From a virus (Duplodnaviria > Caudoviricetes): 64,000 nucleotides of DNA. The notes under the pieces are model-generated. The model made no database searches, was not told the DNA's origin, and saw nothing but the letters and a program-made list of their open reading frames with translations. Location of the stretch: positions 32,001-96,000 of the IMG/VR virus record IMGVR_UViG_3300029305_001452, one strand, 5' to 3'. The position numbers and the translations under genes are program-made. This document shows, one piece after another, positions 1-52,340 of this stretch; position 1 is the first letter of the stretch; every line of letters starts with the position of its first letter.

Positions 1-32
1 GTATTTCATACTTACCTCTTAAAACTCTATTT

Positions 33-239
33 TTATTGCTTATTATATTCGTATCCATACACAACTTTTAATGTGTTAATCATATAATCTGTGTATGAGG
101 GATATTCTCCTTTATCTAATCGTGCAATAATTCGTTCTTTAGATGCCAAAGAATAATCATCATCACCGTGACCAGCAAGACAAAAATCACCACACGCACA
201 AACACAACATTCACCACTGCAATCACTAAACATCTTCAT
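33..239 (-). CDS. small Cys-rich hypothetical phage protein
   Basis: ORF with AGAGGT RBS; bounded by TAAAA-N6-TTTTA sites. Confidence 0.75.
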   Translation of the reverse strand: MKMFSDCSGECCVCACGDFCLAGHGDDDYSLASKERIIARLDKGEYPSYTDYMINTLKVVYGYEYNKQ

Positions 240-264
240 ATTGTTACCTCTTAAAATTTTATTT

Positions 265-483
265 TTATTCGCAATTAGCGGCAGCAGTTATTTCATCAAC
301 ATTTAGTTTACACTGCTCGTCAATCCACTTGCTAACTCTTGTAGCACAGGCAACACAAAGTTGCTTTTCGTCATCATAATACTTCTTGAAGTTAACAACA
401 CCATAATGATTAAAATTAACATTCACTCCGTCAACATTAAAATCAATAGGCTTTTTACACATATCACAAGTAACTTTAATCAT
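265..483 (-). CDS. small Zn-finger-like protein (CDMC...CVAC)
   Basis: ORF with RBS; two CxxC motifs. Confidence 0.75.
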   Translation of the reverse strand: MIKVTCDMCKKPIDFNVDGVNVNFNHYGVVNFKKYYDDEKQLCVACATRVSKWIDEQCKLNVDEITAAANCE

Positions 484-512
484 ATATTCTCACCTCTTAA
501 AAGTTTGTTTTA

Positions 513-821
513 CTATTCAGACATCTTTTCATTCCACACATATACGGCATCATCAAGCTCTCTTGTATATACGGATTCACCGCACTCTTCACATTCTACA
601 GAATACTCAAATGTTTCCACAAAAAACATCTCTTTAGTTTCTACATTCTTCTTTGCAATACCTTCTTGATAAATTTGAGGCAATGCACCACATTTACAAG
701 GCAAAACCCAAGAACGCAAACTGATATGATGATTACAATTTGGACAATGAATCATTGAAGCCTTAGTTGTAATAAACATCTCTTTGCCACACATGGGACA
801 ATAACCAATCTTCTTCTCCAT
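513..821 (-). CDS. Zn-ribbon protein, Lar (restriction alleviation)-like C-terminus
   Basis: CPMC/CPNC, then LPCKCG...VECEEC...AVYVWN; start moved to the ATG after GAGG. Confidence 0.55.
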   Translation of the reverse strand: MEKKIGYCPMCGKEMFITTKASMIHCPNCNHHISLRSWVLPCKCGALPQIYQEGIAKKNVETKEMFFVETFEYSVECEECGESVYTRELDDAVYVWNEKMSE

Positions 822-829
822 AACTACCT

Positions 830-1153
830 CTAACAAATAATTAAATAACCAACTTGCTTGTTCTCCATTAGTTCTAATAATTCAGATAATCTATCGCACA
901 ATTTATCATATGCAATATTTGAAAGATAACCTACACATTGCCTATAATCTCTATTGTTACTTTCGTCTATCTTGAATTTATCCAAACCAGTTTTAAACTC
1001 TTCAATCTTTTTCTTTGTTACTCTACCACTAAATTCGGTTATTTCTTTCCCGAAACACCGTCTGAATACGGGTTGGTATGCATACATACATTCTTCATAG
1101 AAAATACTTTCTTCGTCTGTCTTTCTATGCTTGCCGATAAAACCATATCCCAT
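830..1153 (-). CDS. hypothetical protein
   Basis: ATG (MGYGF) after AGAGGTGG RBS and cassette site. Confidence 0.7.
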   Translation of the reverse strand: MGYGFIGKHRKTDEESIFYEECMYAYQPVFRRCFGKEITEFSGRVTKKKIEEFKTGLDKFKIDESNNRDYRQCVGYLSNIAYDKLCDRLSELLELMENKQVGYLIIC

Positions 1154-1178
1154 AAAACCACCTCTTAAAAGTTTGTTT

Positions 1179-1523
1179 TTATGTGTACTTTCCAGACCTT
1201 GCAACAGATGCCATGTTACCCTTTGAAACATCTTCCATAAACTTATCACTATAGTCTACAGAATAAGCAAATCTACCAGCAAAATATACGAAGCACTTTT
1301 TGCTGCCATCAATCGGAATAAAGACATAGGTTCTTGCAGTTGTCATTGCTTGACCGCCTATGCCTCCAAATCCCAAAGCAGTGCTTCCCCAAACTTGTTC
1401 AAAAGTATACATATCAAAGTCATTTATTGTTTGTCTTGGATTTTCTTTATAGTTAAATCTAAACGGCAAGTCTGCTTCAATGGAAAGAGCCTCTAGCGCC
1501 ATTTGTGTAAGTTTATTACTCAT
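1179..1523 (-). CDS. hypothetical phage protein
   Basis: ORF with RBS; WGSTALGFGGIGG motif. Confidence 0.75.
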   Translation of the reverse strand: MSNKLTQMALEALSIEADLPFRFNYKENPRQTINDFDMYTFEQVWGSTALGFGGIGGQAMTTARTYVFIPIDGSKKCFVYFAGRFAYSVDYSDKFMEDVSKGNMASVARSGKYT

Positions 1524-1540
1524 ATATAATACCTCTCATA

Positions 1541-1843
1541 TTAATTTCCCCATCTAATTTCCAACCAAGATGTTAAGGCACCATGATTATTACCTTCCTC
1601 TTTTACTGTAAATCCTTGCTTCTCGAAATATTCTTTTAACTCCATCATATACTCATATGTCATGAAGCTTTCTCGTAGTGTCTTTGTATAAATAACCTTG
1701 CTGCCACGCTTAGCTTCTCGCTTTATGTCTTTACATAGTTGCTTAATATATTTGCGTCTCATTTTTTCTAGTTTTCTTTCATGCTCTTGTAGATACTTTC
1801 TGGCAGCATCTACGTTGATAACAATACTATTAACTTCAAACAT
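1541..1843 (-). CDS. hypothetical protein
   Basis: ORF with GAGGTGG RBS. Confidence 0.7.
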   Translation of the reverse strand: MFEVNSIVINVDAARKYLQEHERKLEKMRRKYIKQLCKDIKREAKRGSKVIYTKTLRESFMTYEYMMELKEYFEKQGFTVKEEGNNHGALTSWLEIRWGN

Positions 1844-1847
1844 TATA

Positions 1848-2351
1848 TTACCACCTCTCAAAATACTCGCTCAAATATTCAGTTGGGCCAAGTGCAATTT
1901 CCTTGTGGCTGATGCCGGTTTCAAAACATTCACCAATCCACTGATCCCAATTATTATACATAGCATCTGGACCACAACCACTTTCGCCACGCTTGTCTCT
2001 GATGAAGCAACGACCAACCCATTCGGCCTTACAACTAGACATAGGATATACAATTGTAAAATCAATACCTTCCTTATCAAGCGCCTCTCTAACAGATGCG
2101 TGGCTACTTACAAAGATACAATCATACTTACCAATGTTTTCTTTAATATGTTTAATATAGTTATCTGGGAAGTCTGGGTTGCGAACTCTACGAAATCCTC
2201 TAAACACATCCCCATTTTCATCTATGTTAGTAAGTACCCAACTAAATTGACTACTATCGGAGTCAAGAATCTTTAAGCCATACTTTTCTTGATTTTCATA
2301 TAAATATGTCTTGCCACAGGCAGGGAAGACGCTATAAATTTTTGTATTCAT
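1848..2351 (-). CDS. P-loop nucleotide-kinase-like protein
   Basis: N-terminal FPACGKT Walker-A-like motif followed by DSDSS. Confidence 0.55.
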   Translation of the reverse strand: MNTKIYSVFPACGKTYLYENQEKYGLKILDSDSSQFSWVLTNIDENGDVFRGFRRVRNPDFPDNYIKHIKENIGKYDCIFVSSHASVREALDKEGIDFTIVYPMSSCKAEWVGRCFIRDKRGESGCGPDAMYNNWDQWIGECFETGISHKEIALGPTEYLSEYFERW

Positions 2352-2362
2352 ATAACTACCTC

Positions 2363-2647
2363 TTAATATGTTTTTTCTGCTTCAAAATACATTGTATTAT
2401 AATCGCTGTCTCCGCTTTCTTTTACATATTCATCAAACTTTTTTCTCAAACAAGCCTTAGAACATATATCAAAGTGCTCAATGCTTTCACAACTGTCGTT
2501 GCCCCAGTCATGATGTCCTGTAGTAAGCTCCCAGTATCCATTATTTTCAATTATGCCGTCGCAAACATCACAATGCAGCGTTTCTTTTACACAAACTCTT
2601 TCTGTGACAGTATGTGTTTTAACTTCATATTCTCTTTTAATGCTCAT
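2363..2647 (-). CDS. hypothetical Zn-binding protein
   Basis: CDVC...CSKAC motifs; RBS. Confidence 0.7.
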   Translation of the reverse strand: MSIKREYEVKTHTVTERVCVKETLHCDVCDGIIENNGYWELTTGHHDWGNDSCESIEHFDICSKACLRKKFDEYVKESGDSDYNTMYFEAEKTY

Positions 2648-2658
2648 ATTTACACCTC

Positions 2659-2949
2659 TTAAAATTTATCCTTACACTCAGGACAGTAGTCCTTATCACC
2701 ATCTACATGGTGAACCCAGCCTGCAGCCTTAGCCTTGTCAAGCGCCTCGTTGTGACTATCTGCATGCGGACTATGCTTTCCGCAGCCGTCACACTTTCTA
2801 TAATGTTGTCTAACAGTTTTAGGAAAACTCAAAAATAAAATTGAAAATAGCGCAATCCACCATCTATTAAATCCCATAGCTAGGAGTGTAAAACAAACAA
2901 CGCTAATCATATTGTAAATGGCGCAAGCCCAAATAGTATTTTTATTCAT
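2659..2949 (-). CDS. membrane protein with C-terminal Zn ribbon
   Basis: two hydrophobic segments, then CDGC...CPEC. Confidence 0.65.
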   Translation of the reverse strand: MNKNTIWACAIYNMISVVCFTLLAMGFNRWWIALFSILFLSFPKTVRQHYRKCDGCGKHSPHADSHNEALDKAKAAGWVHHVDGDKDYCPECKDKF

Positions 2950-3220
2950 TTATATCACCATCCATTCTAGACCCACAATCAGGACAGTATCTCATCCAGC
3001 TATCATAGTCCCATACATTTCTAGTTGTGCGATGGCAATGCTGGCAAGTGCCGCTACCGTCTTTATTAAACTTCCATGAGCTATGATTTATCTCAGCCCA
3101 TTTTGTGCGGTCTTTAAAATCTTCGCAACCAAACTCATTCAAATAATCTTCGTCACCGGATACACTGTTTTCAATAATCACACATACTTCATAATGTAAA
3201 CAATCTTTACAAGTAGTCAT
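2942..3220 (-). CDS. Zn-ribbon phage protein
   Basis: CKDC, CQHC and YCPDCGSRMD motifs. Confidence 0.7.
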   Translation of the reverse strand: MTTCKDCLHYEVCVIIENSVSGDEDYLNEFGCEDFKDRTKWAEINHSSWKFNKDGSGTCQHCHRTTRNVWDYDSWMRYCPDCGSRMDGDINE

Positions 3221-3224
3221 TATA

Positions 3225-3551
3225 TTAAATTTCACCATCCATCTTTGCACCACAGAACGGACACACCTTGAATCGTGCTTTCCAGTATTCCCGGTCATGA
3301 GATTCGATCTTGAACACTTCCTCACAATGAGAACAATCAATGCTCTTGTAAATAATTCTTCCAGTTTTGGGATCTACCGCACATCCATCTTCCCAATGTG
3401 CGTGTACCACTTCCACGGCATCCACGGTGGGAAGAGAGTTAAACCATTCTTCCACACACCATAAGTCTGTCGAGCAACCAAATCCACATTCTATGTCTTG
3501 TATATTTGCTTTATTGGCGTCAATAAATCTAATTCCATTTGTCATCTTCAC
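3225..3551 (-). CDS. Zn-ribbon phage protein
   Basis: PTVDAVEVVHAHW...CSHC...CPFCGAKMD pattern. Confidence 0.7.
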   Translation of the reverse strand: MKMTNGIRFIDANKANIQDIECGFGCSTDLWCVEEWFNSLPTVDAVEVVHAHWEDGCAVDPKTGRIIYKSIDCSHCEEVFKIESHDREYWKARFKVCPFCGAKMDGEI

Positions 3552-3707
3552 TCACCACTCAACTACAAAGTCATCCACTTCTTCTACAGTTTCAATTCCA
3601 TACTCACAGAAAGCATAGTCTTCATCGTCAAACTTTTCACGCGCCTCTTCCTCGTCGTCTGCATCAACATAGGCAAACCCTCCAAATATAATCTTAAATC
3701 TTGCCAT
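3552..3707 (-). CDS. small acidic protein (51 aa; not in ORF track)
   Basis: MARFKIIFGG...VVEW* with GAGG RBS. Confidence 0.6.
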   Translation of the reverse strand: MARFKIIFGGFAYVDADDEEEAREKFDDEDYAFCEYGIETVEEVDDFVVEW

Positions 3708-3718
3708 ATTCTGTCCTC

Positions 3719-3892
3719 TCAATCCAAATCAAAACGTTCATTAGCCATAACTACGGACACAATTTCATCTGCAAACTCTTCATCTGTCATTTCAACTAGG
3801 TCAAGCATAATGTTGCAAAGAGTCATAACGGTGTCCTCTACTGTGTGACCAGATGTGAATTGCTTAATTGCATCAATCATTTCATAATACAT
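3719..3892 (-). CDS. small acidic protein (57 aa; not in ORF track)
   Basis: MYYEMIDAIK...FDLD* with AAGGAG RBS. Confidence 0.6.
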   Translation of the reverse strand: MYYEMIDAIKQFTSGHTVEDTVMTLCNIMLDLVEMTDEEFADEIVSVVMANERFDLD

Positions 3893-3928
3893 AATTAATT
3901 CTCCTTACCTCTTAAAATATGTTTTTTA

Positions 3929-4201
3929 TTAGTACTTATCTTTAACAAATACTTGACCGCACTTCGTACAATAATAAAATGTTTTGTCTTTTATTGATTC
4001 TCCGTATTTGCGACTTCCCCAAGCATTAGAATTATGCGAAATTCCGTTGTCATAATATAACTCTTCTAATTCGTGCTTGCAATTACCATGCTTTTCCAAT
4101 GCCTCAACTGCCATCTTCGCATAGCTCGTTACTGGCTCACTAAAAATATCATGTGTAATTCCATATTTAAAATGATTAATTGCGTCATTTATGTCTGTCA
4201 T
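3929..4201 (-). CDS. hypothetical protein
   Basis: ORF; AVEALEK and CTKC motifs. Confidence 0.7.
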   Translation of the reverse strand: MTDINDAINHFKYGITHDIFSEPVTSYAKMAVEALEKHGNCKHELEELYYDNGISHNSNAWGSRKYGESIKDKTFYYCTKCGQVFVKDKY

Positions 4202-5789: not shown

Positions 5790-5828
5790 ATTTTTGTTGC
5801 TCCTTTGTATTAATTTTGTACCGTTGGA

Positions 5829-5857
5829 ATTATATCATAAAATCCACAATTTGTCAA
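5829..5857 (-). promoter_or_regulatory. sigma-A-type promoter
   Basis: TTGACA-N17-TATAAT with TG extension on the minus strand; 17-bp motif just downstream (5809-5825). Confidence 0.8.
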
Positions 5858-6026: not shown

Positions 6027-6374
6027 CTACGGATCGCTTGCTTCGCTACTTGGGTCTTTGTCTTGCTTCGCATCTTTGGACAATATCTTTTGGACATCAA
6101 CATAGATGTTGCCTTTTTCGTCTAGCTGGATATAACCCTTGTCCTCTAGTTGCTTGCGCACTTTATAATAATTATTTGGCTGGGATATCCCGGTCATTTT
6201 TTGCATATACGCTGTACTTGGGGAGAATGACCCATCGCCTTTACAACCTAGTAGAGTTAGGAGGACTTTTGCCTCGTTACCGCCTAATTGATTATTTATA
6301 GCCGAGAATAGATTGCTTGGGTATACCATAAAGCTTTTTGGTTTATCTTCTTTGTCATGGAAAACCTGGGGCAT
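6027..6374 (-). CDS. winged-helix DNA-binding protein (replication-initiator-like)
   Basis: GNEAKVLLTL...FSPS...MTGIS...YKVRKQLEDKGYI wHTH pattern; adjacent to the repeats. Confidence 0.6.
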   Translation of the reverse strand: MPQVFHDKEDKPKSFMVYPSNLFSAINNQLGGNEAKVLLTLLGCKGDGSFSPSTAYMQKMTGISQPNNYYKVRKQLEDKGYIQLDEKGNIYVDVQKILSKDAKQDKDPSSEASDP

Positions 6375-6409
6375 TTGAATCCTCCTTTCATTAATTTTGT
6401 GTCGCTTGG

Positions 6410-6438
6410 ATTATACTACATTTTTTTAGATTTGTCAA
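6410..6438 (-). promoter_or_regulatory. sigma-A-type promoter
   Basis: TTGACA-N17-TATAAT on the minus strand; 17-bp motif at 6390-6406. Confidence 0.8.
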
Positions 6439-18793: not shown

Positions 18794-18826
18794 ACAATAC
18801 AAAATTAATAATTGGAGGTATGTGTT

Positions 18827-21743: not shown

Positions 21744-22082
21744 ATGATGCACGAACAAGTAAGAAAACAACTTGAACATTTAAAGTATTGGGTGAATGCA
21801 GAGTCAAAATACGAAGAAGATTGTGAAAGGTGGGGAATTCCGTATACCCCATCAAGAAGAAAATGGGAAGATATTGAACTTTATGAAGAGTACAAGAGAG
21901 AAGTCGAAAAGAACGGCGATAAAAATCTTCTCGTTATGGTAAAGATGAACGGAGATGGTATGTATGGTGTATATCCGTTTGCAAGAAGATATGTGCATGA
22001 GCCTTATCTTGTGCATAGAACTGAACATGGTGCTGAGGTGTTGGTTAGAGAAGACGAAGTAAAAGTAGTAAAGGTGCATTAA
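21744..22082 (+). CDS. hypothetical protein
   Basis: GGAGG RBS; stop codon lies in a cassette site. Confidence 0.7.
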   Translation: MMHEQVRKQLEHLKYWVNAESKYEEDCERWGIPYTPSRRKWEDIELYEEYKREVEKNGDKNLLVMVKMNGDGMYGVYPFARRYVHEPYLVHRTEHGAEVLVREDEVKVVKVH

Positions 22083-22097
22083 AAGGATAATTTTATT

Positions 22098-22343
22098 ATG
22101 GAGGATTTGATTATGACAGTTAGAGAACTGATTGATATGTTGGAAAACTTTGATGATGATATGGAAGTTAGAATTGGTATGCAACAGACTTATGGTACTG
22201 ATTTTGCAATGAGTATCAGAGATGTTGAAGAATACAATGTAATGGCTTTCTATGGAGAAGATTACAAAGCCGTTGTAATCACAGAGGGTAGACAATGTGG
22301 TGCAGTTGATTATGACGGAGAGCATGACGATTGGGAAGATTAA
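22098..22343 (+). CDS. small phage protein (MTVRELIDML family)
   Basis: flanked by TAAAA-N6-TTTT sites. Confidence 0.7.
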   Translation: MEDLIMTVRELIDMLENFDDDMEVRIGMQQTYGTDFAMSIRDVEEYNVMAFYGEDYKAVVITEGRQCGAVDYDGEHDDWED

Positions 22344-22547
22344 AAAGATAATTTTGTGAGGTGTGATTATGTCTATAGAAGAATTTAAAACATATCTTGA
22401 TATGATTGTAGAGAAGGCTTTTAAGGAAGGTGTTCTTTATGAGCGGAACAGAAGAAAGTTTGGCTATGACGAAAATTGGATTGCAATGGAAATGGCTATT
22501 GACAATGCGAAGGTAAATATTCTTGGTGAATAAGTGGGGGGTTTTAT

Positions 22548-22772
22548 ATGAGAGTTATTTCTACTACTGATTTGAGTGATTATGGAAACGATTGTTATAT
22601 CCATAAATCTGTAAGCCTTGTTGAAGATTTTGGAATGTACAATATCCTAACCGTAGAGAAGGTTGTTGGTTGGTGCGAAAGAGAACAGATGTACCTTATG
22701 GCTGATACTACTTGCAATTTTGATAAGGCAAAGTGGATATACAAGCAAAAGGGTGGCATTTTGGAAGAATAA
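22548..22772 (+). CDS. hypothetical protein
   Basis: stop codon lies in a cassette site. Confidence 0.65.
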   Translation: MRVISTTDLSDYGNDCYIHKSVSLVEDFGMYNILTVEKVVGWCEREQMYLMADTTCNFDKAKWIYKQKGGILEE

Positions 22773-22799
22773 AATGACGATTTTAATGGGGAAATATAT

Positions 22800-23000
22800 A
22801 TGATTAGATTAAATAGTGTTGGTATGGAAAGAATTGAGCAAATTCAAGATAAATACAGATTTAAAAACAATTTTGAACTTGAAGCACACGAAGTATATGA
22901 TTTTTGTAATGATATTATGAAAGCATATTATCTTGGGTTGTGTATGGACGAAGAAGATTTAGAGTTTGTAGAAATGGTGTTGGAAAAGATGTGTGAGTAA
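22800..23000 (+). CDS. hypothetical protein
   Basis: flanked by cassette sites. Confidence 0.65.
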   Translation: MIRLNSVGMERIEQIQDKYRFKNNFELEAHEVYDFCNDIMKAYYLGLCMDEEDLEFVEMVLEKMCE

Positions 23001-23036
23001 CCACATAAAAGAGTGATTTTAACGGAGGTTTTATAG

Positions 23037-23243
23037 ATGAAAAGAACTGTTACAATTACATTCAAAGACGGAAATAAAGTTACAGTCGAACCGAAAGTAG
23101 ACTGTTTTGGACTTTTCTATTTGGATAACGGAATGGCATTTAGTGTTAATGGTGGAATCTTATATAAAGAAAAGGGTAATGTTATTTGTGGTGAGGATAT
23201 CACAGATACGGTAGATGCAATTGAAATATCTATGAAGTATTAA
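23037..23243 (+). CDS. hypothetical protein
   Basis: GGAGG RBS after a cassette site. Confidence 0.65.
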   Translation: MKRTVTITFKDGNKVTVEPKVDCFGLFYLDNGMAFSVNGGILYKEKGNVICGEDITDTVDAIEISMKY

Positions 23244-27089: not shown

Positions 27090-27121
27090 CAATACAAAAT
27101 TAATTTAAGGAGGTAAATAAT

Positions 27122-29666: not shown

Positions 29667-30641
29667 ATGAACGGAAGACTTGAAAGAGAACTAAGAGCAG
29701 AAGAAAAAATGATGGCTAAATTAAACAGTCTGCCATCAATTTTTACAGAATTCTATAATACACTAGCCATAAATAAAACATATACCACATTAAATAATTA
29801 CATTAATCATAATATAGATTTTATGAACTATGTGACAAACAATAAGCCGAATAATAAGTTTTATAAAAATGTAAAAGCAGCAAAAATAAATGAGTATATG
29901 AGATCTATTCGTCGTAAAAATATAAACGGAACAACAGTAAGAATTGGTGATGATATCTGTGCTGCCAGATGGACATCTTTAAGGGCGTTTTTCCAGTTCT
30001 TAAAAGAGTTCGATTATGTTGAAGAAAATCCAATGGAAAAAACTAATAGACCTAAGATTAATACGGAGCATAAGGTAACATATTTAAAAAGAGAAGAAAT
30101 TAATATGGTTATCAATGAAATTAAAACAAATTCTACAGAATCTAAAAGAAGTAGAGATTTATGCTTGGTTTCTTTAGCTTTATCAACTGGATTGCGTGTG
30201 AGTGCGATAACTCAAATTAATATTGACGATATTGATTTCGTAAATCATACTATTAGTGTTGTAGAAAAAGGAAATAAGGTTAGAGCGATTAGTTTTGGTG
30301 ATAATTTGGCAGAACTAATCAAACAATGCATTGAGGATCGTGAAACGTATTTCCCTAATGCCGAAAGTAATGCCTTATTCTTATCACAATGGAAAAGACG
30401 TATGACTACACAGGCCGTTAGAGACTTAGTAGCTAAGTACACAAAGAATATCCATGGCAAACATATTACCCCACATAAGCTTCGTGCGTCTGCTGCAACT
30501 AATTTGGCTGCGTCTGGTGTGAGTATACAGGCGATCGCAAAAGTGTTGGGGCATGAAAACATCCAAACAACAAGAAGATATGTTGAAGTGCTTGACGAAG
30601 AGGCAGAAAAGGCAACTAATGTTCTTGATAATTTAATTTGA
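29667..30641 (+). CDS. tyrosine recombinase (XerC/D-like), catalytic residues intact
   Basis: TGLR, EKG, HKLR, LGH and TTRRY give R-K-H-R-H-Y. Confidence 0.92.
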   Translation: MNGRLERELRAEEKMMAKLNSLPSIFTEFYNTLAINKTYTTLNNYINHNIDFMNYVTNNKPNNKFYKNVKAAKINEYMRSIRRKNINGTTVRIGDDICAARWTSLRAFFQFLKEFDYVEENPMEKTNRPKINTEHKVTYLKREEINMVINEIKTNSTESKRSRDLCLVSLALSTGLRVSAITQINIDDIDFVNHTISVVEKGNKVRAISFGDNLAELIKQCIEDRETYFPNAESNALFLSQWKRRMTTQAVRDLVAKYTKNIHGKHITPHKLRASAATNLAASGVSIQAIAKVLGHENIQTTRRYVEVLDEEAEKATNVLDNLI

Positions 30642-30707: not shown

Positions 30708-31634
30708 GTGGATATTATGTATCAAAAAGAAAGAAAAGAGGAATTTATAAAAGACATAATGAGAAGTCGTGTAATCCAAAAAACTACACTATATGCTATA
30801 TTCAAAAAGACAGAACCATTTGAAGAAAAGTTTAAAAAAGATTGTTGTCAGTTTAACAAAGAAGAAGCTATGGAAATGTTTTACGGATTTAAATGTAAGA
30901 GCATCTATACACTTTTAAATAATAATACAATTATGAAAGCGTATAGTGCTTTTGCAGAATACTATCATGGAATTAAAGTGAAAAAAGTATATGAAAGTTT
31001 TACGATCTCCGATTTAAAACCATGTATAGCAGAAAGTAAAAACAAGTTAATCACAAGAGAGGATTTAGATGATATTAAAGCACAACTGCTAAATGTAGTA
31101 GATAGATGTATTGTCGAGTCTCTATGGGAAGGGATTTCAGGAACATCAATGAGAGATATTACTGGGCTTCAAGAGGGGCAGCTAGACAAAACGAGAAAAC
31201 AATTACATTTTGAAGATGGTCGTGTGCTAAACTTAACGGATGAGTTATATGAAGACTTGTTGGGTGCATTTAAACAAACTAAATATATTTGTTATGGAGA
31301 GACTCTAAGGGAAAAAACATTACTTGGGTATGGTCGCCTATATAAAGAAAGAGACAATGCGCTTGGTGAGCTTGATTCAGAAGATAGAAGATTTAGATGG
31401 ATATATAGAAAAATCCAAATATTTAGAGATCATGTCGGAATGCCGTGGTTAACAATGAAAATAATTCAAAATAGTGGATTTACGCACTATTTAAAAATTG
31501 GTATGGATAAAACAGGATTAGGGATAAAGGATTTCCTTAAGACAAAGGAAGGCAAAGAGTTAATGATCCGTTATGGATATACATCTCAATTCGCCGTAGA
31601 TAATGTAGTACACAAATATAAAGATTATGTATAG
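30708..31634 (+). CDS. MrpR/YopR-like master repressor (degenerate tyrosine-recombinase fold)
   Basis: FKKTEPFEEKFKKD..F, LWEGISG in place of TGxR, IQNSG; follows a recombinase as in SPbeta. Confidence 0.7.
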   Translation: MDIMYQKERKEEFIKDIMRSRVIQKTTLYAIFKKTEPFEEKFKKDCCQFNKEEAMEMFYGFKCKSIYTLLNNNTIMKAYSAFAEYYHGIKVKKVYESFTISDLKPCIAESKNKLITREDLDDIKAQLLNVVDRCIVESLWEGISGTSMRDITGLQEGQLDKTRKQLHFEDGRVLNLTDELYEDLLGAFKQTKYICYGETLREKTLLGYGRLYKERDNALGELDSEDRRFRWIYRKIQIFRDHVGMPWLTMKIIQNSGFTHYLKIGMDKTGLGIKDFLKTKEGKELMIRYGYTSQFAVDNVVHKYKDYV

Positions 31635-33601: not shown

Positions 33602-34750
33602 ATGGCAGAGAGAAAATTTGGAAGAACCTATAAAATGAGCGAAAAGTTTGAAGATTATTCATATATCATTAACGGTGTTGGTGGTATTGGTAAGACAACC
33701 TTAGTATATGAAATTGGTAAGTTAGTTACAGGCAGCAACGAAGGTACTTTTATCATCACTTGTGGTGGTGAAAATAAGCCCAAGCACATTCCTGATGCGT
33801 TCGGTGATGTAGCACCCGACTTCAAGACTTTTGTTGCTATCGTAAAGGAACTTTGTACAAACAAGGAAGCATACCCCGATACAAAGTTCGTTGCAATTGA
33901 CTCCCTAGATGAGTTTGCAAGAATTGCAGAGGCTTATGTAATTGCTGAATGGAACGCAACTTGTGATATTAACGAAAGAGCAAAGAGTATTTCACAGGCA
34001 TATAAGGGATTCCAGAAGGGTGAATCTAGAGCTTGTGATCTAATGATTCAGCAGGTTATGAAGCTACAGGAAGCTGGATATAGCCTATTGGAAATTGGCC
34101 ATACTAAGACAAAGTCTAAGACTGATGTAATTACTCAAGTACAGTTTGAGCAGTTAACTTGTAATCTAGACAATAAGTATTATAATGCACTAAAGGATAA
34201 GGTAAACCTAGTTGCAATGTGTTACTTCCAGCATATTATTGAGAATGTTGAAGAGAAGAAGAATGCATTCACTAAGAAGATGGATAAGGTTGGTGAGCTA
34301 GTTGACCGTAAGAGAATTATGGTATTTGCAGACGATGATAATGCAATTGACTGTAAGAGCCACTTTGAGTACATTACCCACCAGATTGATTTTAGTGCCG
34401 AGGGCTTTGTGAGGGCGGTTGAAGAGGCGATTGCTCTTAAGCTAGAAGCCTTTAATGGAAATGTACCTAAGAAGCCTACTAAGGCAACTAAGCCAACACC
34501 TACTCCTGTGGTTGTAGAGGACGATTTAGATGAAGATGAACCACCCTTCGATGTTGATGAGGATTTAGATGATACTCTTGATGTAGATTTCGATTTTGAT
34601 GCCGTAAGAACAGAAATCAGAAACAAGAATAAAGCTGGCACCCCTGAACAGAAGAAGACAGTTAAGGCACTTCTAAATTCTACTGGCAAGAAGCTAGACG
34701 AACTAGAAGATGTTGAAGTGTTAACTAAGATGTTAGAGGTATTTGAATAA
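33602..34750 (+). CDS. AAA_24/Sak4-like ATPase (YorG-like)
   Basis: GVGGIGKTT Walker A, AIDSLD Walker B, IGH motif. Confidence 0.8.
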   Translation: MAERKFGRTYKMSEKFEDYSYIINGVGGIGKTTLVYEIGKLVTGSNEGTFIITCGGENKPKHIPDAFGDVAPDFKTFVAIVKELCTNKEAYPDTKFVAIDSLDEFARIAEAYVIAEWNATCDINERAKSISQAYKGFQKGESRACDLMIQQVMKLQEAGYSLLEIGHTKTKSKTDVITQVQFEQLTCNLDNKYYNALKDKVNLVAMCYFQHIIENVEEKKNAFTKKMDKVGELVDRKRIMVFADDDNAIDCKSHFEYITHQIDFSAEGFVRAVEEAIALKLEAFNGNVPKKPTKATKPTPTPVVVEDDLDEDEPPFDVDEDLDDTLDVDFDFDAVRTEIRNKNKAGTPEQKKTVKALLNSTGKKLDELEDVEVLTKMLEVFE

Positions 34751-42799: not shown

Positions 42800-42862
42800 T
42801 TGACATTTGGAAAATATTTGTTATAATGACAGTACAAAATTAATAACAAAGGGGTTATTTAT

Positions 42863-43461: not shown

Positions 43462-43719
43462 ATGAATAGTTTTACAAAAGAACCGTTGCATATTGATGAC
43501 GTTGTGGTTTATCTAAAGAATGAAAGAACTGGTAGCAGCACCATTAGAAAGTGTAAATTTATTGGACATATTACTGGTTTTACTGATACCAAAGTTAATA
43601 TTAATAGACTATCTCCGCCAGATAAGTTTGTACATCCAGATGAAATCCAAAGTCTTGGAACCGATACTGTTTGTCCAGATGATGTTGTGAATATTATAAT
43701 CAGTAAATATGGCGAATAA
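43462..43719 (+). CDS. hypothetical protein
   Basis: AGGAGG RBS; stop codon lies in a cassette site. Confidence 0.7.
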   Translation: MNSFTKEPLHIDDVVVYLKNERTGSSTIRKCKFIGHITGFTDTKVNINRLSPPDKFVHPDEIQSLGTDTVCPDDVVNIIISKYGE

Positions 43720-43736
43720 AAATAAAATTTTCAGAG

Positions 43737-44048
43737 GTGATGGTTATGTATTTTATTACTGTTTTTGACAAAGTTGAACCAAGTGATGTATTTTACGCCG
43801 AATTTGGCGATCGTAGAACTTGGGGATATTATCCAGAGTATGAAATGGCAATGAACGCTCTTCACGAAAATCGGACAGATATGCACGAAGGTTGCTATGA
43901 GTATGCCGTAATTGAAAACATTGGACCCGGCATTTGTGCTTATGCAGGAGAAAGACAATGGTTCAAATGGGATAAAGAGAAGCGTGGATATTTTGAGATC
44001 GAAGAACCGGAATGTGTAAAACATTTTGTGAATTTTGCAATTGGGTAA
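43737..44048 (+). CDS. hypothetical phage protein
   Basis: flanked by cassette sites. Confidence 0.7.
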   Translation: MMVMYFITVFDKVEPSDVFYAEFGDRRTWGYYPEYEMAMNALHENRTDMHEGCYEYAVIENIGPGICAYAGERQWFKWDKEKRGYFEIEEPECVKHFVNFAIG

Positions 44049-44076
44049 AGTAAAATTTTAAACGGAGGATTTAAAA

Positions 44077-44514
44077 ATGGATAAAGTAATGGAATTGCTA
44101 GAGCAGTTGGCGAACAGTTTAGGCGTAGCGGTCGAATATTTGTGGACAACATTGGTAAAGCAACAGTATGTAGAAGGTGTAACAAATCTTACAATGGCTG
44201 CTATTGGAATTATTGCAACAATTGCACTGTTGATTTGCGTTCCTAGAGCTACAAAGTTCTTCATCAATCAACATAAAGAGTTGGCAGAAGACAGAAGAAA
44301 AAATGGAACTGGATGGCATGGGAGTTATAGTGTGTCTAGTATGAGAGAAGATTTTTGTAATTCTATGAAGTTTGTAGTTCCAATTGTTGGTTTTGTGGTT
44401 ATTTTTGTTATTATTATTTGCGTTGTAAGCAATGTTAAATTTGGAATCCAGCAGTTACTTAACCCAGATTACTTTGCACTTAAAGAAGTGTTAGACACAA
44501 TTAGTGGTTCGTAA
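44077..44514 (+). CDS. membrane protein
   Basis: LGVAVEYLW..LVKQ motif; two TM segments; NPDYFAL. Confidence 0.75.
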   Translation: MDKVMELLEQLANSLGVAVEYLWTTLVKQQYVEGVTNLTMAAIGIIATIALLICVPRATKFFINQHKELAEDRRKNGTGWHGSYSVSSMREDFCNSMKFVVPIVGFVVIFVIIICVVSNVKFGIQQLLNPDYFALKEVLDTISGS

Positions 44515-44551
44515 AGTAACGATTAAAAGTAAAGTTTTAAGTGGTGATTAT

Positions 44552-44848
44552 ATGAGCTATTATTGTACAAAAGAAATGAAAGCTTGCGAGTTTGCAAATG
44601 TATACGGGCATTGCAATGTAACAGCTTGTACAAAAATCAATAGAAATAATATGCAGTTTCTAGACACTTCTATATCTTACAACAAAACTTTTGAAGAAGA
44701 ACTAGAAGAAAAAAGAAAAGTTGCGATTGCAGAGGGATATTTGGAAGGTTTGGGTGTAAAAATTAAAACGGATATGTATGGATATTATAGAAATACATGG
44801 GATATTCTACTGGATTTAGGAGAATATCTTTCTAAGAATAACACATAA
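44552..44848 (+). CDS. hypothetical protein
   Basis: ATG after a cassette site and GGTG RBS. Confidence 0.65.
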   Translation: MSYYCTKEMKACEFANVYGHCNVTACTKINRNNMQFLDTSISYNKTFEEELEEKRKVAIAEGYLEGLGVKIKTDMYGYYRNTWDILLDLGEYLSKNNT

Positions 44849-44866
44849 AAGCAGAGTTTTAAGGGG

Positions 44867-45160
44867 TTGTATGATATGAAGAATAAATTAATTGTATTAT
44901 TAACAATATTTATTTTGATATTTTCATTGGTTGGATGTGCAACAACATATCAAGAAGCAACTGGTAAAAATGATGAAGAAGATTTTTGTAATGGATACTT
45001 CACAGTTATTACTAAGTGGGATGATGATGCTGGGACATATAGAATTGTGTATGCAAATGATACAAAAGTAAAGTATATAACAATTAGTAGTGGATATAAA
45101 TTTGGTATTAGTCCACTCTATAATACAGATGGAACATTACAAATTTATTATGGCGAATAA
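44867..45160 (+). CDS. predicted lipoprotein
   Basis: signal peptide with LVGC lipobox; TKVKY...PLYNTDG motif. Confidence 0.7.
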   Translation: MYDMKNKLIVLLTIFILIFSLVGCATTYQEATGKNDEEDFCNGYFTVITKWDDDAGTYRIVYANDTKVKYITISSGYKFGISPLYNTDGTLQIYYGE

Positions 45161-45192
45161 GCATATAAAAGAAGATTTTTAAGAGGTAACTT

Positions 45193-45567
45193 ATGAGTGT
45201 TCGTATTGATGGAAGATATTATTATTCTCCGTGTGATGAATGTAAGACTGAATGGTGCTTTTCGTGCACGCTGTCAAAGTATAAAGAAGATTTACGAAAA
45301 GAACAAGAAAGAAGAGCCTTTGCTGAATCTCGTATTGAAAGAGAACTAGAACCTCGCCTTAAAGCAGAATATAGTGCATATGATCGTTATGTTTTAACTG
45401 ATCGTTCTTTAGAATGGTGTGATACGTTTGATTGCCGTGTAAACGAATTGGTTGAAATGTTTGAGGAAGATTTTGATTGGTCTCAGTTCGATTTTGACGG
45501 TGATGATATTACCAGTAAAGTCGCAAAACTAATATATGAAACAGTAAAGGATGAAAATAATGATTAA
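45193..45567 (+). CDS. hypothetical protein
   Basis: AGAGGT RBS after a cassette site. Confidence 0.7.
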   Translation: MSVRIDGRYYYSPCDECKTEWCFSCTLSKYKEDLRKEQERRAFAESRIERELEPRLKAEYSAYDRYVLTDRSLEWCDTFDCRVNELVEMFEEDFDWSQFDFDGDDITSKVAKLIYETVKDENND

Positions 45568-46731: not shown

Positions 46732-46977
46732 ATGAATCGGCACATTTTTGAGGTTAATGCAGTTCAACGTCTCGGAGATCAAATTGGATATGGACATCTT
46801 ATGTGGTTGGCCTCTGCTTTATGGCGTAGAAAGCTTGTAAAGGACTGGGGAGAAGGTCACGAAAAGGGAGCGTTCTTGCCAACGGTTAGTGTTTTGTTAA
46901 ATGAAGAGGGATTGGATATTTTTCAGCAGCAAATTGGTATTTATGATGAAATTGTTGCAGATGTGTTAGATAAGTGA
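46732..46977 (+). CDS. hypothetical protein
   Basis: GAGGTG RBS. Confidence 0.7.
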   Translation: MNRHIFEVNAVQRLGDQIGYGHLMWLASALWRRKLVKDWGEGHEKGAFLPTVSVLLNEEGLDIFQQQIGIYDEIVADVLDK

Positions 46978-46994
46978 AGTTTTAAGAGGTAAAT

Positions 46995-47306
46995 ATGTTT
47001 ATTAGCAAAGATGAATATTATGATCTTCTTGATTGTAAAGAAATTAATACAAAGCTAGAAGAAGAAATCAAAAGATTAGAATATATGTTAAACACAAGAG
47101 ATAAGAGTTGTAAGGTTGGTCCATGGTGTAAAAATTGTGGTCATTGGGTTGAAGATGAATCTGTAATTACAAGTAGCATTATTAATGAATATACCTTAGA
47201 AGACGCATATTATGGAGTACCGATTCCAAAGAAAATTGGTGGTAAAGTAGGATATTGTAATAAATATATTCATACTTTATGCCCTGATTTTACATTAAAA
47301 GTTTAG
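46995..47306 (+). CDS. hypothetical protein
   Basis: flanked by cassette-like sites. Confidence 0.7.
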   Translation: MFISKDEYYDLLDCKEINTKLEEEIKRLEYMLNTRDKSCKVGPWCKNCGHWVEDESVITSSIINEYTLEDAYYGVPIPKKIGGKVGYCNKYIHTLCPDFTLKV

Positions 47307-47314
47307 TTTTAGAG

Positions 47315-47863
47315 GTGAAAATAGTGGCTGATGTTAACGTAGAAATGTTAAAGGAGAAGCTTTATAAGGTTGCTAGTGCATTGTTTCGTATTAGTGAAAC
47401 TTGTGTAGAAGTGAGTAAACAGCACATAAGTGAAAAAGATGCTTTAAATAAGATCCGTGGATATTTAAATGATTCCGATATGTGGTCTAAGTTGAAAGTA
47501 GATAAACTAATTGGCGAGTGTATGGAGCCACAGATTTATAATACTTTTGAAGAGTATCAAGATGAATGGTTAAAAAAATCTTTGGGTAAATGGGTTGGAC
47601 TAGAACCTCTGGAAATTAATTACCCAGATTGTTGTGATGAATGTTCAAACAACCCTAAGAACGGTGGTTCTGGAATTTGTAATTGCACATTGCCGTATAT
47701 GCAGAACCCTACTATGTATAGCAACGGAGATTCTTGTATGGCAAATAATATTAACGGCAATGTTTATTTTGTAAAAGATTTAGATACTCTGAAAGAACAT
47801 AAAGCAAGTTCTGATAGAATTGCAGAAGCCGTTGAGAGAACTAAGAAATATGAGAGGAAATAA
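47315..47863 (+). CDS. hypothetical protein
   Basis: CSNNPKNGGSGICNCTL motif. Confidence 0.7.
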   Translation: MKIVADVNVEMLKEKLYKVASALFRISETCVEVSKQHISEKDALNKIRGYLNDSDMWSKLKVDKLIGECMEPQIYNTFEEYQDEWLKKSLGKWVGLEPLEINYPDCCDECSNNPKNGGSGICNCTLPYMQNPTMYSNGDSCMANNINGNVYFVKDLDTLKEHKASSDRIAEAVERTKKYERK

Positions 47864-49848: not shown

Positions 49849-49943
49849 CCACGTATAGCTCAATTGGTAGAGCGACGGATTTATGCTCCGTTTGGCACCA
49901 GATTAGTGCGAGGTTCTGGGTTCGACTCCTAGTACGTGGACCA
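49849..49943 (+). tRNA. tRNA-Ile(UAU) with long variable arm
   Basis: CCACGTA/TACGTGG acceptor; ACGGA-TTTATGC-TCCGT anticodon arm; TTCGA; CCA. Confidence 0.8.
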
Positions 49944-49946
49944 AAT

Positions 49947-50023
49947 GGTTCCATAGTTCAGTTGGTTAGAACCCCCGGCTCATAACCGGGTTGTCCTCTG
50001 TTCGAGTCAGAGTGGAACCACCA
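49947..50023 (+). tRNA. tRNA(CAU), Ile2- or Met-type
   Basis: cloverleaf; CCCGG-CTCATAA-CCGGG; CCA. Confidence 0.85.
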
Positions 50024-50028
50024 AATAT

Positions 50029-50104
50029 GATCCGTTAGCTCAGTTGGTAGAGCACCAGACTTTTAATCTGGGTGTCTTGGGTTCAAATCCCAAACGGGTC
50101 ACCA
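50029..50104 (+). tRNA. tRNA-Lys(UUU)
   Basis: cloverleaf; CT-TTT-AA loop; CCA. Confidence 0.92.
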
Positions 50105-50110
50105 TGATAT

Positions 50111-50186
50111 GCCTCCTTAGCTCAGTTGGTAGAGCAACGGACTGTTAATCCGTGTGTCGCAGGTTCGAGACCTGCAGGAGGCGCCA
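50111..50186 (+). tRNA. tRNA-Asn(GUU)
   Basis: cloverleaf; CT-GTT-AA loop; CCA. Confidence 0.92.
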
Positions 50187-50262
50187 ACTCCGTTCGATTA
50201 ATCGGAAAAGTCAACATCGTCCGAAGATGTAGAAATCGGATCATAACCGATACGGAGTTCCA
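50187..50262 (+). tRNA. non-canonical tRNA-like RNA, anticodon CCG (Arg)
   Basis: ACTCCGT/ACGGAGT, ACATC-GTCCGAA-GATGT, ATCGG-ATCATAA-CCGAT, TCCA end. Confidence 0.55.
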
Positions 50263-50424
50263 GTTAAGTTAGTTATCTGCGCAGATATGACACCTCCCAG
50301 GTTATGGCGGCTGACCTTATTTAAAAAATAAAAGCCACTCAATAGACGGTGATAATGCTTGCTAGCGGCAAAACAACCGTCTAACATATCTTCCAGTAGC
50401 TCAGTTGAATAGAGCAACGGTCTT

Positions 50425-51042
50425 TGAAGTAAAAGGAGCTTTCTATGTGGAATATTCAAAAGATTGTGAGCAAAGGTGATTATAATTACGCTGTTGTACC
50501 AGAACATCCAAATCGTACAAAAAATAACTATGTTTTGGAACATAGAGTCGTAATGGAAAATTACCTTGGTAGACTTTTGAATAATGATGAGGTTGTGCAT
50601 CATATAAACGGCAATAAAAAAGATAACAGAATTGAAAATTTAGAGGTATTTTCTAACGAAGAACATGCAAAACTACATGGTGCTAGAGTTGGTCATAAAA
50701 TGGTAATGCTAAAATGTCCTTGGTGTCAGAAAGTATTTTCAATTGAAAAAAGACAATCTTTTTTAGATAAGCATAATAAATATCAATGCAACTGCTGTTC
50801 TAATGAATGTCGTGGTAAATTATATAGCAGCATACAACATCATGGATTAACCGTAGATTTGCAGGAAGCTATATCGGAAAATCTCTTAGCGGAATATATT
50901 GAATATATTGACGAAGACAATTCCGAGGAAACCCTCTCACAATGGGGATCCGTAGAGACTATACGCTTCCCATCTGAAATGATGATGATATAGTCCAGAC
51001 TACAACATATAAATTATGGCTATGGAAACATAGAGTAGTAAG
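50425..51042 (+). mobile_element. group I intron in the tRNA-Arg anticodon
   Basis: exon ends in U and intron ends in G; GAGACTATACG and GATATAGTCC core-like motifs. Confidence 0.8.
50445..50993 (+). CDS. intron-encoded HNH homing endonuclease
   Basis: HRVVME...VHHINGNKKDNRIENL. Confidence 0.88.
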   Translation: MWNIQKIVSKGDYNYAVVPEHPNRTKNNYVLEHRVVMENYLGRLLNNDEVVHHINGNKKDNRIENLEVFSNEEHAKLHGARVGHKMVMLKCPWCQKVFSIEKRQSFLDKHNKYQCNCCSNECRGKLYSSIQHHGLTVDLQEAISENLLAEYIEYIDEDNSEETLSQWGSVETIRFPSEMMMI

Positions 51043-51088
51043 CTAAACCGTAGGTCACAGGTTTGAGTCCTGTCTGGAAGACCAATAT

Positions 51089-51166
51089 GGCCCAGTAGAC
51101 AAGTTGGATACAGTCACCAGCCTTTCACGCTGGAATTCGAGGGTTCAAATCCCTCCTGGGTCACCA
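51089..51166 (+). tRNA. tRNA-Glu(UUC)
   Basis: cloverleaf; CT-TTC-AC loop; CCA. Confidence 0.88.
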
Positions 51167-51171
51167 AATAT

Positions 51172-51248
51172 GGCTCCGTAGTTCAGATGGTTAGAATGCC
51201 AGCCTGTCACGCTGGAGGTCGTCGGTTCGAAACCGATCGGAGTCGCCA
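51172..51248 (+). tRNA. tRNA-Asp(GUC)
   Basis: cloverleaf; CT-GTC-AC loop; CCA. Confidence 0.92.
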
Positions 51249-51366
51249 AGTAAGTGATACTTAAATACTGCCTCAAAGGATTAGCCTTTCAGGAGACGGT
51301 GCCTGCACCGACTCTGTTTACTGGTGTAGATGCCGAAGTACAAGGTGCAGTAGCCAGCAATAATAT

Positions 51367-51442
51367 GCGGTAGTAGTTCAATTGGTGGAGCCCCAGATTT
51401 CCAATCTGGCTGCTGCGAGTTCGAGTCTCGTCTACCGCTCCA
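51367..51442 (+). tRNA. tRNA-Gly(UCC)
   Basis: cloverleaf; TT-TCC-AA loop; TCCA. Confidence 0.88.
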
Positions 51443-51619
51443 GTAGAGAGAGTCTACTTAAAAGGTCAGCAACAAGATTGTCTGACGCAACGTTGAAACA
51501 AATAGTCCGGGCCAACTTCGGTTATTTGTGGAGTTCATTGAGGGTTTGATGCCATCCACAAGTTGGCTAGACAAAAGTCGAAAGAAAAGCATCAGTCTAC
51601 GAAACGGAGGATATTGCCT

Positions 51620-51667
51620 ATGATTGAATGCGTAAAATCCAGCAAGGAGGAAACTCCTCCAGCATAG
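51620..51667 (+). CDS. candidate 15-aa micropeptide MIECVKSSKEETPPA
   Basis: GGAGG RBS; paralog at 54836. Confidence 0.45.
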   Translation: MIECVKSSKEETPPA

Positions 51668-51709
51668 TAGCGGGTTTCGCCGTTCCCACCAAAAACGGCG
51701 AGTTAATAT

Positions 51710-51798
51710 GGCGGGTTAATTCGGACGGCTCCGAACCTTGTCTTGAAAACAAGTGGTACCAGGGATGGTATGGGGATCGACACCTCAGCCCGTCGCCA
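51710..51798 (+). tRNA. tRNA-Ser(UGA), atypical D and T loops
   Basis: CTTGT-CTTGAAA-ACAAG; long variable arm; GCCA. Confidence 0.75.
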
Positions 51799-51803
51799 TA
51801 TAT

Positions 51804-51893
51804 GGAGAGTTACCCAAGTGGTCAAGGGGGCAGTTTGCTAAACTGCTAGGGGTTTAAAAGCCCGCGAGAGTTCGACCCTCTCACTCTCCGCCA
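51804..51893 (+). tRNA. tRNA-Ser(GCU)
   Basis: cloverleaf with long variable arm; TT-GCT-AA loop; GCCA. Confidence 0.9.
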
Positions 51894-52007
51894 TACCCCG
51901 TACATACCTGGGGTTGCATCGTGTATAAGTCTCGCATAACACTACTTATCTTGTGATGAGTTGACTGAATAAAGGTGTTATTTATCTTAAAGAAAGGAAA
52001 ATATAAA

Positions 52008-52247: not shown

Positions 52248-52261
52248 GTAACACCATATAT

Positions 52262-52336: not shown

Positions 52337-52340
52337 TAAC

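Follow-up and report, generated by a model that had tools for sequence, protein, structure and literature searches.

A short repeated module with position-specific 6-nt cores at the small-gene junctions of a group of large gut phages

In his modular theory of 1980, Botstein is said to have proposed that 'linker' sequences at gene borders act as preferred crossover points, and the boundary sequences known from lambdoid phages are few, irregular and disputed. Here we describe a short junction element, hereafter the module, in a 64,000-nt stretch of phage DNA (the window) comprising bases 32001-96000 of one 139,972-bp IMG/VR virus record (IMGVR_UViG_3300029305_001452), estimated to be 87% complete. 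In the sense direction, the module reads W-TAAAA-N6-TTTTAAGAGGT-(5-9 nt)-ATG; it is 21-26 bp long, is restricted to promoterless runs of small genes, and carries between its two arms a 6-nt core that is almost always unique within a genome and keeps its order between genomes. As far as we found, collinear, position-specific 6-nt cores in an invariant 21-nt stop/restart module have not been described.

The closest described systems each share some of these traits. The PeSLs of T4-type phages (PMC2839356, PMC4122927) likewise start at the upstream stop codon, end at the ribosome-binding site (RBS) or start codon of the next gene, and are concentrated in hyperplastic regions, ahead of orphan genes, and genes gained, lost or replaced between relatives have their borders at the element. 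However, PeSLs span ~100 bp and hold a sigma-70 promoter and a terminator hairpin, while the 21-26-bp module has neither; inverted 5-nt arms and a collinear 6-nt core have not been described for PeSLs, and the host clade differs. The SAS and ESAS of cluster K mycobacteriophages (PMC3203893) resemble the module in being asymmetric, in placing a Shine-Dalgarno core a few nucleotides upstream of ATG in one orientation, in recurring 11-19 or more times before different gene families of the non-structural region only, and in a conservation exceeding what pairing with rRNA explains. This likeness is architectural only, as the SAS consensus is GGGATAGGAGCCC and that of the module TTTTAAGAGGT. Moreover, the inverted repeats of ESAS are 17 bp long with a variable spacer, whereas the module has 5-nt arms and a fixed 6-nt spacer, and an ESAS remains tied to its gene family, unlike the module, which assorts independently of the genes. 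SPBRE, the operator bound by the SPbeta repressor MrpR/YopR (PMC10516654), is also a short repeated site, with some copies abutting an RBS, and an MrpR homologue is encoded in the genome studied here; but SPBRE, of the form ATACA-N7-TGTAT with ATACAAAA, matches another repeat of this genome (ttAACAATACAAAATTAAT, see below) and not the module, it stands at promoters while the module stands inside operons, and SPbeta itself has no module. Integron arrays, like those described here, are rows of small, co-oriented genes that are unrelated and promoterless, separated by short imperfect palindromes and preceded by an upstream promoter. Yet attC sites are 57-141 bp long and fold as single strands, while the module (16-21 bp) does not fold; no IntI adjoins the array here; and attC travels with its cassette, whereas the module stays and its cores label positions, not cassettes. 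Finally, the module agrees with the 'linker' concept as a short conserved border sequence proposed as a crossover point, but differs in recurring 15-32 times per genome, at single-gene resolution and with position-specific cores. The module is thus not an integron site, a PeSL in the strict sense, an SAS by sequence, or SPBRE; by analogy, it would work most like a PeSL or a 'linker' element.

The window holds 11 copies of the exact palindrome TAAAA-N6-TTTTA, where dinucleotide shuffles predict 0.72 and yield 3 at most, and the directional form TAAAA-N6-TTTTAAGAGG, allowing up to two mismatches, is matched 13 times against 0.68 expected. When the spacer was varied from 0 to 15 nt over the whole 140-kb genome, 12 copies were found with 6 nt and 0-6 with any other length; with the right arm fixed as TTTTAAG, a spacer of 6 gave 7 copies and the others 0-1. 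An earlier note on this DNA had described six such sites at its left end, with two more clusters further on, and had read them as an integron-like array of gene cassettes. All six sites were found, those at 20-35, 252-267, 1166-1181 and 3913-3928 as exact TAAAA-N6-TTTTA, the one at 498-513 with a GTAAA arm and the one at 2660-2675 in a degenerate form (sense GTAAG-GATAAA-TTTTAAGAGG), and the enrichment over shuffled sequence and the fixed 6-nt spacer it had anticipated are borne out by the counts above. The two further clusters exist as well, so that modules occur in three clusters only, at 15-3928 (-), 22.0-23.0 kb (+) and 43.7-47.3 kb (+) (Table 1); the first falls within a tight run of small leftward genes at 1-4200.

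All copies of the module lie at gene junctions and all are co-oriented with the local genes, which makes the element directional and not symmetric. In this respect the inverted-arm site of the earlier note stands in part: its arms and 6-nt core are real, but the site has a direction, and its right half is fused to the RBS. A logo of 106 distinct sites from this genome and its relatives shows W-TAAAA, six weakly A/purine-rich positions, and TTTTAAGAGGT-R, the last being the Shine-Dalgarno sequence of the next gene, whose start codon mostly follows 5-9 nt after GAGG. Upstream, there is a weak AACA at 3-6 nt (2-6 in another count), C reaches 34% at -4, and nothing is conserved beyond -6. Both 5-nt arms carry ~1.5 bits per position at their fixed 6-nt spacing, whether or not TAA is a stop codon. 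Indeed, while the upstream open reading frame (ORF) often ends at the TAA of the first arm, as had been noted earlier (58 of 101 sites in the clade), it ends at a TAA 3 nt upstream in 11 sites and at the right-arm TAA in 5, and in most of the remaining ones the stop lies 5-18 nt upstream; because these stops so often fall elsewhere, TAAAA is conserved also where it is not a stop codon. The ORFs downstream of modules have a median length of 71 aa.

The module sits between the cistrons of early operons. No sigma-A-type promoter was found inside the module clusters, nor any promoter match at a module, and the idea that the module itself is a sigma-A promoter was rejected, the logo having no -35 or -10 element. 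The arrays are cassette-like, with promoterless genes in one orientation and promoters, as predicted from sequence, upstream: a consensus promoter precedes cluster 3, and the one at 5829-5857 would feed the leftward operon that holds cluster 1. As the earlier note had proposed, the genes are promoterless and unrelated, with no paralogue found in the arrays, which also led us to reject descent of the motif by gene duplication. A Sigma70_r2 gene was looked for and none was found. The module genes of this genome also differ from the others in their translation signals, as none of 9 has a GGAGG-class RBS, compared with 96 of the 190 other genes, and their intergenic gaps are 23-37 nt, compared with a median of 13 nt. 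An RNA hairpin formed by the two arms was rejected, since its free energy would be -0.1 to +1.0 kcal/mol, so that the region can be taken as unstructured; the pairing probability of the arms averages 0.24 in a 60-nt context.

The cores are almost all unique within a genome (32 of 32 distinct in the relative G002, 29 of 29 in G004), and a number of them recur across phages, among them ATAAAA, ATAGAG, TACGAA, ATTATA, GTAAAG, GCAGAG, GAAAGG and GAAGGA. With G004 as the reference, shared cores are collinear in 14 of 14 cases in G002, 8 of 8 in c79 and 7 of 7 in L132, and one exception was seen, between G004 and G003. In 139 inter-genome pairs of same-core junctions, representing 28 cores, identity is 0.98-1.0 inside the module and 0.27-0.31 beyond -11 and +35, which is the background of unrelated junctions; BLAST returns junction-only matches of 39-47 bp. 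At orthologous junctions, the longest stretch of unbroken identity measures 21 bp in the median (maximum 36), compared with 7 bp between modules of one genome, where it reaches at least 20 bp in only 2 of 1343 pairs. Each array of G004 and G002 (L121-L124) has its own preference at the first core position: in one, the cores are mostly A-initial (AACATA, ATAAAA, ATAGAG, ATGAAG, ATTATA, ACTTAA, with TACGAA as an exception), a second has G-initial ones (GACAGA, GTAAAG, GCAGAG, GAAAGG, GAAGGA), and a third T- or C-initial ones.

What lies between the modules changes from phage to phage. When slots lying between an identical pair of consecutive cores are compared, 32 of 36 slot pairs have no detectable similarity of content, and their lengths differ up to 3-fold. 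The arrays as a whole are highly mosaic, this genome and either L001 or L007 sharing only one gene in ~10 kb, with homology that stops at the gene borders. Members of family 55 are 85% identical from the right-arm TTTT onward but stand behind different cores, GTTTAA in one phage, TATCGT in a second. The 98-aa protein encoded at 44552-44848 has an 80%-identical C-terminal part in four phages, and the homology ends at the TAAAA of a junction with core GCAGAG, ATAAAA or ATGAAG, or at one without a module. This protein family comprises at least 48 clusters, in which a C-terminal part of ~60 residues is 80% identical and the N-terminal parts differ; because the C-terminal parts are shared and the N-terminal ones are not, mosaicism reaches inside genes. 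Of 81 homologous pairs of small genes, 3 share the upstream core, 7 have differing ones there, 29 have one in a single member of the pair and 42 in neither; downstream, 4 share the core, 5 have differing ones and 25 have one in a single member only. Since the cores stay collinear while homologous genes follow different cores or none, we read the modules and their cores as parts of a fixed frame in which genes come and go. The shuffling of genes one at a time that the earlier note proposed is thus upheld as far as slot content turns over gene by gene between modules, but mosaic borders are not enriched at the motif (see below).

Core ACAAAC occurs twice in the window (493-1181), where the two modules flank a 668-bp two-gene segment; in L133 (3579-3995) they flank an unrelated one-gene segment of 396 bp, and G001 has a single ACAAAC module. 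These paired modules are compatible with an insertion that duplicates the junction, although the cases are too few to judge. Duplicate cores in general were rejected as evidence of insertion, as 3 were seen (ACAAAC and ATAAAA here, GAAAGG in G003) against ~1.6 coincidences expected by our rough estimate from core composition and the genomes examined. The 114-aa protein encoded at 1179-1523 has a homologue of 68% identity in L008 (IMGVR_UViG_3300010163_000016), in a stretch of 51% G+C without a module, and this finding suggests that the small gene crosses between very different phages.

To survey other phages, IMG/VR was scanned with the exact pattern, and many contigs with several copies of the module were found. 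With up to one mismatch allowed, five large relatives have 4, 6, 29, 32 and 32 copies of it, compared with 0-1 for a reversed control pattern (G005 is a fragment identical to G002). No copy was found in SPbeta and four other large phages, no conserved junction motif in the more distant phages L003 and L004, and no close relative in the phage collection searched. Taken together, the multi-copy relatives and the absence from SPbeta and the four large phages mark the module, on sequence comparison, as a hallmark of one clade, the 110-170-kb phages of animal gut samples. The nine runs in which this phage was found all gave DNA contigs from animal gut or faeces.

Table 1 Modules and other features located in the window (positions are those of the window).
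Feature	Position	Strand	Context
Module, core ATAGAG	15..35	-	gene 33-239 stops at TAA 33-35; following gene begins at 9 and exits the left edge of the window
Module, core ATAAAA	247..267	-	between genes 265-483 and 33-239
Module, GTAAA left arm, core ACAAAC	493..513	-	between genes 513-821 and 265-483; direct repeat of the 1161-1181 module
Module, core ACAAAC	1161..1181	-	between genes 1179-1523 and 830-1153
Degenerate module GTAAG-GATAAA-TTTTAAGAGG	2655..2675	-	between genes 2659-2949 and 2363-2647
Module, core AACATA	3908..3928	-	between genes 3929-4201 and 3719-3892; first of cluster 1 in transcription direction
Consensus sigma-A-type promoter TTGACA-17-TATAAT	5829..5857	-	followed by SPBRE-like motif 5809-5819
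HTH_36 protein gene	6027-6374		
Second consensus sigma-A-type promoter	6410..6438	-	leftward early operon; followed by SPBRE-like motif 6390-6400
Exact palindrome TAAAA-GGATAA-TTTTA	22080..22095	+	between genes 21744-22082 and 22098-22343; RBS AGGA inside core, ATG 2 nt past right arm
Module, core AGATAA, right arm TTTTG	22341..22361	+	upstream of gene 22369-22533
Module, core TGACGA	22770..22790	+	upstream of gene 22800-23000
Module, core GAGTGA then TTTTAACGGAGG	23006..23028	+	upstream of gene 23037-23243
XerC/D-type tyrosine recombinase gene	29667-30641		
YopR/MrpR homologue gene	30717-31634		directly after the recombinase gene
Sak4-like annealing protein gene	33602..34750	+	phrog_124, E 4e-14
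Consensus promoter	near 42800-42826		ahead of cluster 3
Module, core ATAAAA, right arm TTTTC	43717..43737	+	upstream of gene 43746-44048; first of cluster 3
Degenerate module GTAAA-GTAAAA-TTTTAAACGGAGG	44045..44070	+	upstream of gene 44077-44514
Module, core GTAAAG	44524..44544	+	upstream of gene 44552-44848; GTAAAG then GCAGAG also in G004 and G002
Module, core GCAGAG	44846..44866	+	upstream of gene 44876-45160
Module, core GAAGAT	45166..45186	+	upstream of gene 45193-45567
Module, GATAA left arm, core GTGAAG	46969..46989	+	upstream of gene 46995-47306
Module, core GTTTAG then TTTTAGAGGTG	47296..47316	+	upstream of gene 47324-47863
14 tRNA genes	49849-55223		three groups, each behind consensus sigma-A-type promoters
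ttAACAATACAAAATTAAT repeat (examples)	5809-5819, 6390-6400	-	
ttAACAATACAAAATTAAT repeat (examples)	18799-18809, 27094-27104, 42834-42844, 57899-57909, 62161-62171	+	

The gene content identifies the phage by homology as SPbeta-like and temperate: an RNA polymerase of YonO type is encoded, as are a large serine recombinase and an XerC/D-type recombinase adjoined by a YopR/MrpR homologue. The single-chain polymerase is 26% identical over 525 residues to SPbeta YonO (E 4e-35) and has the DFDGD motif; it is encoded left of the window by a 657-aa ORF (L010:6149-8122, genome 26149-28122), against 839 aa in SPbeta. The large serine recombinase (L012:1815-3800, genome 117615-119600; Resolvase domain E 1e-27, 661-683 aa) is probably an SprA-like integrase, and together with the MrpR homologue it suggests a temperate phage. 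The intact tyrosine recombinase is the only PF00589 gene of the genome, lies 7-26 kb from the clusters, and has XerC and XerD as its best solved relatives, IntI4 matching only 53 C-terminal residues; it is the positional equivalent and homologue of SPbeta yopP. The gene that follows, in the same order as SPbeta yopP..yopR, matches PDB 8BJ6 and 8A0A (E ~2e-8) and 9RD5 (E 8e-13) and is also found by direct BLASTP (E 9e-11). Its counterpart MrpR has the fold of a tyrosine recombinase but is no longer catalytic, and SPBRE is the repeat it binds (PMC10516654).

A second oriented repeat, ttAACAATACAAAATTAAT, is commoner than the module, with ~29 exact copies of its ACAAAATTAAT core in the genome and 51 at up to one mismatch. 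It lies inside the spacer of consensus TTGACA-17-TATAAT promoters or just downstream of them, and usually immediately precedes an RBS. SPBRE, as we derived it from seven SPbeta upstream regions, is cAAATACAAAaAATATGTATATAa, and ATACAAAA is common to it and to the ttAACAATACAAAATTAAT repeat, which by this resemblance is probably the operator of the MrpR-like repressor. Equating the module with the SPBRE-like motif through its weak upstream AACA was rejected, the likeness being too weak. Since they are YopP and YopR/MrpR homologues, the recombinase-like genes are accounted for by the SPbeta regulatory kit; judged by homology and gene order, they are part of the SPbeta repressor kit and are not to be read as cassette integrases.

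As for the function of the module, we give an even chance to the reading that it is a clade-specific stop/restart expression adaptor between cistrons that also frames slots exchanged by short-homology recombination. The long early operons would start at the upstream sigma-A-type promoters, and the module would act in their mRNA, ending the upstream frame with a TAA offered in two frames. Its AU-rich, open stretch and GAGGT-class RBS would then let the next small gene be translated independently, so that any ORF placed in the slot could be expressed. The modules form a fixed, ordered frame of slots in which the DNA is replaced, and the same gene families recur in different slots. Exchange would most likely take place with co-infecting or resident relatives and be resolved inside the modules by the annealing and exonuclease proteins of the phage; the genome encodes a Sak4-like single-strand annealing protein, which we infer to be a candidate for short-homology recombination at the junctions, and also a RecJ-like exonuclease, and in relatives a PD-(D/E)XK nuclease gene lies within the array. 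A comparable logic has been put forward for the PeSLs of T4-type phages (PMC2839356), of which this would be a far shorter, promoterless and bar-coded form. The cores would keep such exchange in register and limit deletions among the ~15-32 direct repeats of each genome, in-register exchange being favoured because orthologous modules share ~21 bp and intragenomic ones ~7 bp. In addition, two inverted 5-nt arms kept so strictly, at one set distance, suggest that the module is also read by a sequence-specific factor.

Several observations weigh against this combination of adaptor and exchange frame. Mosaic gene borders fall at motif junctions no more often than at motif-less ones (38% vs a baseline of 34%, P = 0.5), and the motif is not needed for gene turnover, because junctions without it are equally mosaic and 42 of the 81 homologous pairs lack it upstream in both genomes. 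[quoted passage not shown] A role as an RBS alone fails to explain the exact distance of TAAAA where it is not a stop codon, or the palindrome at 22080-22095 that holds the RBS inside its core. Contigs encoding exactly the 167-aa protein represent the same strain in four other samples, with unchanged gene order, so that turnover is not visible on short time scales.

The main rival, although we consider it unlikely, is a repeated operator, read either in DNA, where it would block elongation in the prophage as the stoperators of cluster A mycobacteriophages do, or in mRNA, by a translational repressor like RegA of T4. A dimer would recognize the inverted TAAAA/TTTTA half-sites, spaced by one helical turn, and so control 15-32 small early genes together, and mosaicism would be incidental. 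Repeated operator sites have a precedent in the stoperators of L5. The information in both arms at fixed spacing, which does not depend on the use of TAA as a stop, fits such an operator, as does the palindrome kept at 22080-22095 though the RBS has shifted into its core, and all the sites stand at junctions facing the direction of transcription. The phage is moreover of a temperate type, with a serine recombinase and an MrpR-like repressor, in which the silencing of possibly toxic early genes is plausible, and the SAS/ESAS of cluster K offer another precedent (PMC3203893). However, a scan of the conserved array proteins revealed no obvious site-binding candidate (a PD-(D/E)XK nuclease in the relatives and the HTH_36 protein were noted), ten cassette proteins compared with Pfam and PHROGs gave only zinc-ribbon hints and phrog_4182, and the MrpR-like repressor is better matched to the SPBRE-like motif. 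No module copy stands at a promoter, and an operator does not predict that 6-nt cores which are not contacted would be conserved position by position amid differing flanks. The same cores are left without explanation by a transcript signal, that is, a promoter for the YonO-type polymerase or a cleavage site splitting the early mRNA upstream of each RBS, which we hold to be the least probable reading. AU-rich single-stranded stretches are of the type cut by RNase Y or RNase E, the fixed 21-nt architecture ending at GAGG is similar in size to the promoters of single-subunit polymerases, the phage encodes its own polymerase, and the weak upstream AACA is found in the ttAACAATACAAAATTAAT repeat too. 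Yet nothing is conserved upstream of -6, a transcript starting from GAGG would be nearly leaderless, the modules occur only in early-type arrays behind sigma-A promoters and not ahead of late genes, and no definition of the YonO promoter is found in the literature (PMC5467207).

Recombination at the module by a dedicated enzyme has more than one form. In its strict form, which appears very unlikely, a recombinase or nuclease would cut at the core edges and single genes would move, with the cores as heterospecific labels comparable to lox spacer variants. It would account for the inverted arms around a core of fixed length, for cores that are conserved and collinear despite differing flanks, for homology with relatives that begins at the right arm or ends at the left one, and for consecutive ACAAAC modules that enclose unrelated inserts in this genome and in L133, as a target-duplicating insertion would leave them; an intact XerC/D-type recombinase is at hand, and PF00589 genes were found in 5 of the 5 relatives tested. 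The arms of lox, FRT and dif are 11-13 bp long, however, whereas symmetry here extends over 5 bp per arm, left and right differ beyond that, the asymmetric right arm doubles as an RBS, and nearly all cores differ within a genome. The recombinase is a YopP homologue that does not lie beside the clusters, and SPbeta has it but no module; the cores accompany neither of the flanking genes, upstream or downstream, unlike what a single fixed cleavage position would produce, and borders at motif-less junctions are equally mosaic. The integron- or Tn916-like mechanism of the earlier note is not supported by the same facts, the site being asymmetric and fused to an RBS, with 5-bp arms and cores that stay while genes change, and its integrase would have to be sought among the only genes of tyrosine-recombinase fold, the YopP and the catalytically dead YopR/MrpR homologues, 7-26 kb away. 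A looser form, in which a phage enzyme (a recombinase, or a nuclease with an annealase) acts on TAAAA-N6-TTTTA as a heterospecific exchange site and the core serves as the address, is improbable in our view. If it were true, co-infecting relatives would swap equivalent slots only, as a natural counterpart of recombinase-mediated cassette exchange, and the population would have a large pool of small accessory genes in common while its genomes stayed unscrambled.

In large phages, most functions in host takeover and anti-defence reside in small orphan early genes, and the fast turnover of these genes is an old question, dating from Botstein's 'linker' proposal, for which there are few concrete cases, such as the PeSLs of T4. 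With a stop/restart adaptor that frames exchangeable slots as the preferred reading, the bar-coded frame of this clade offers a natural system to measure where and how phages exchange single genes. The module could serve as a simple marker for exchangeable slots in metagenomes, and it may also provide a portable 'stop-and-restart' adaptor for engineered phage operons.

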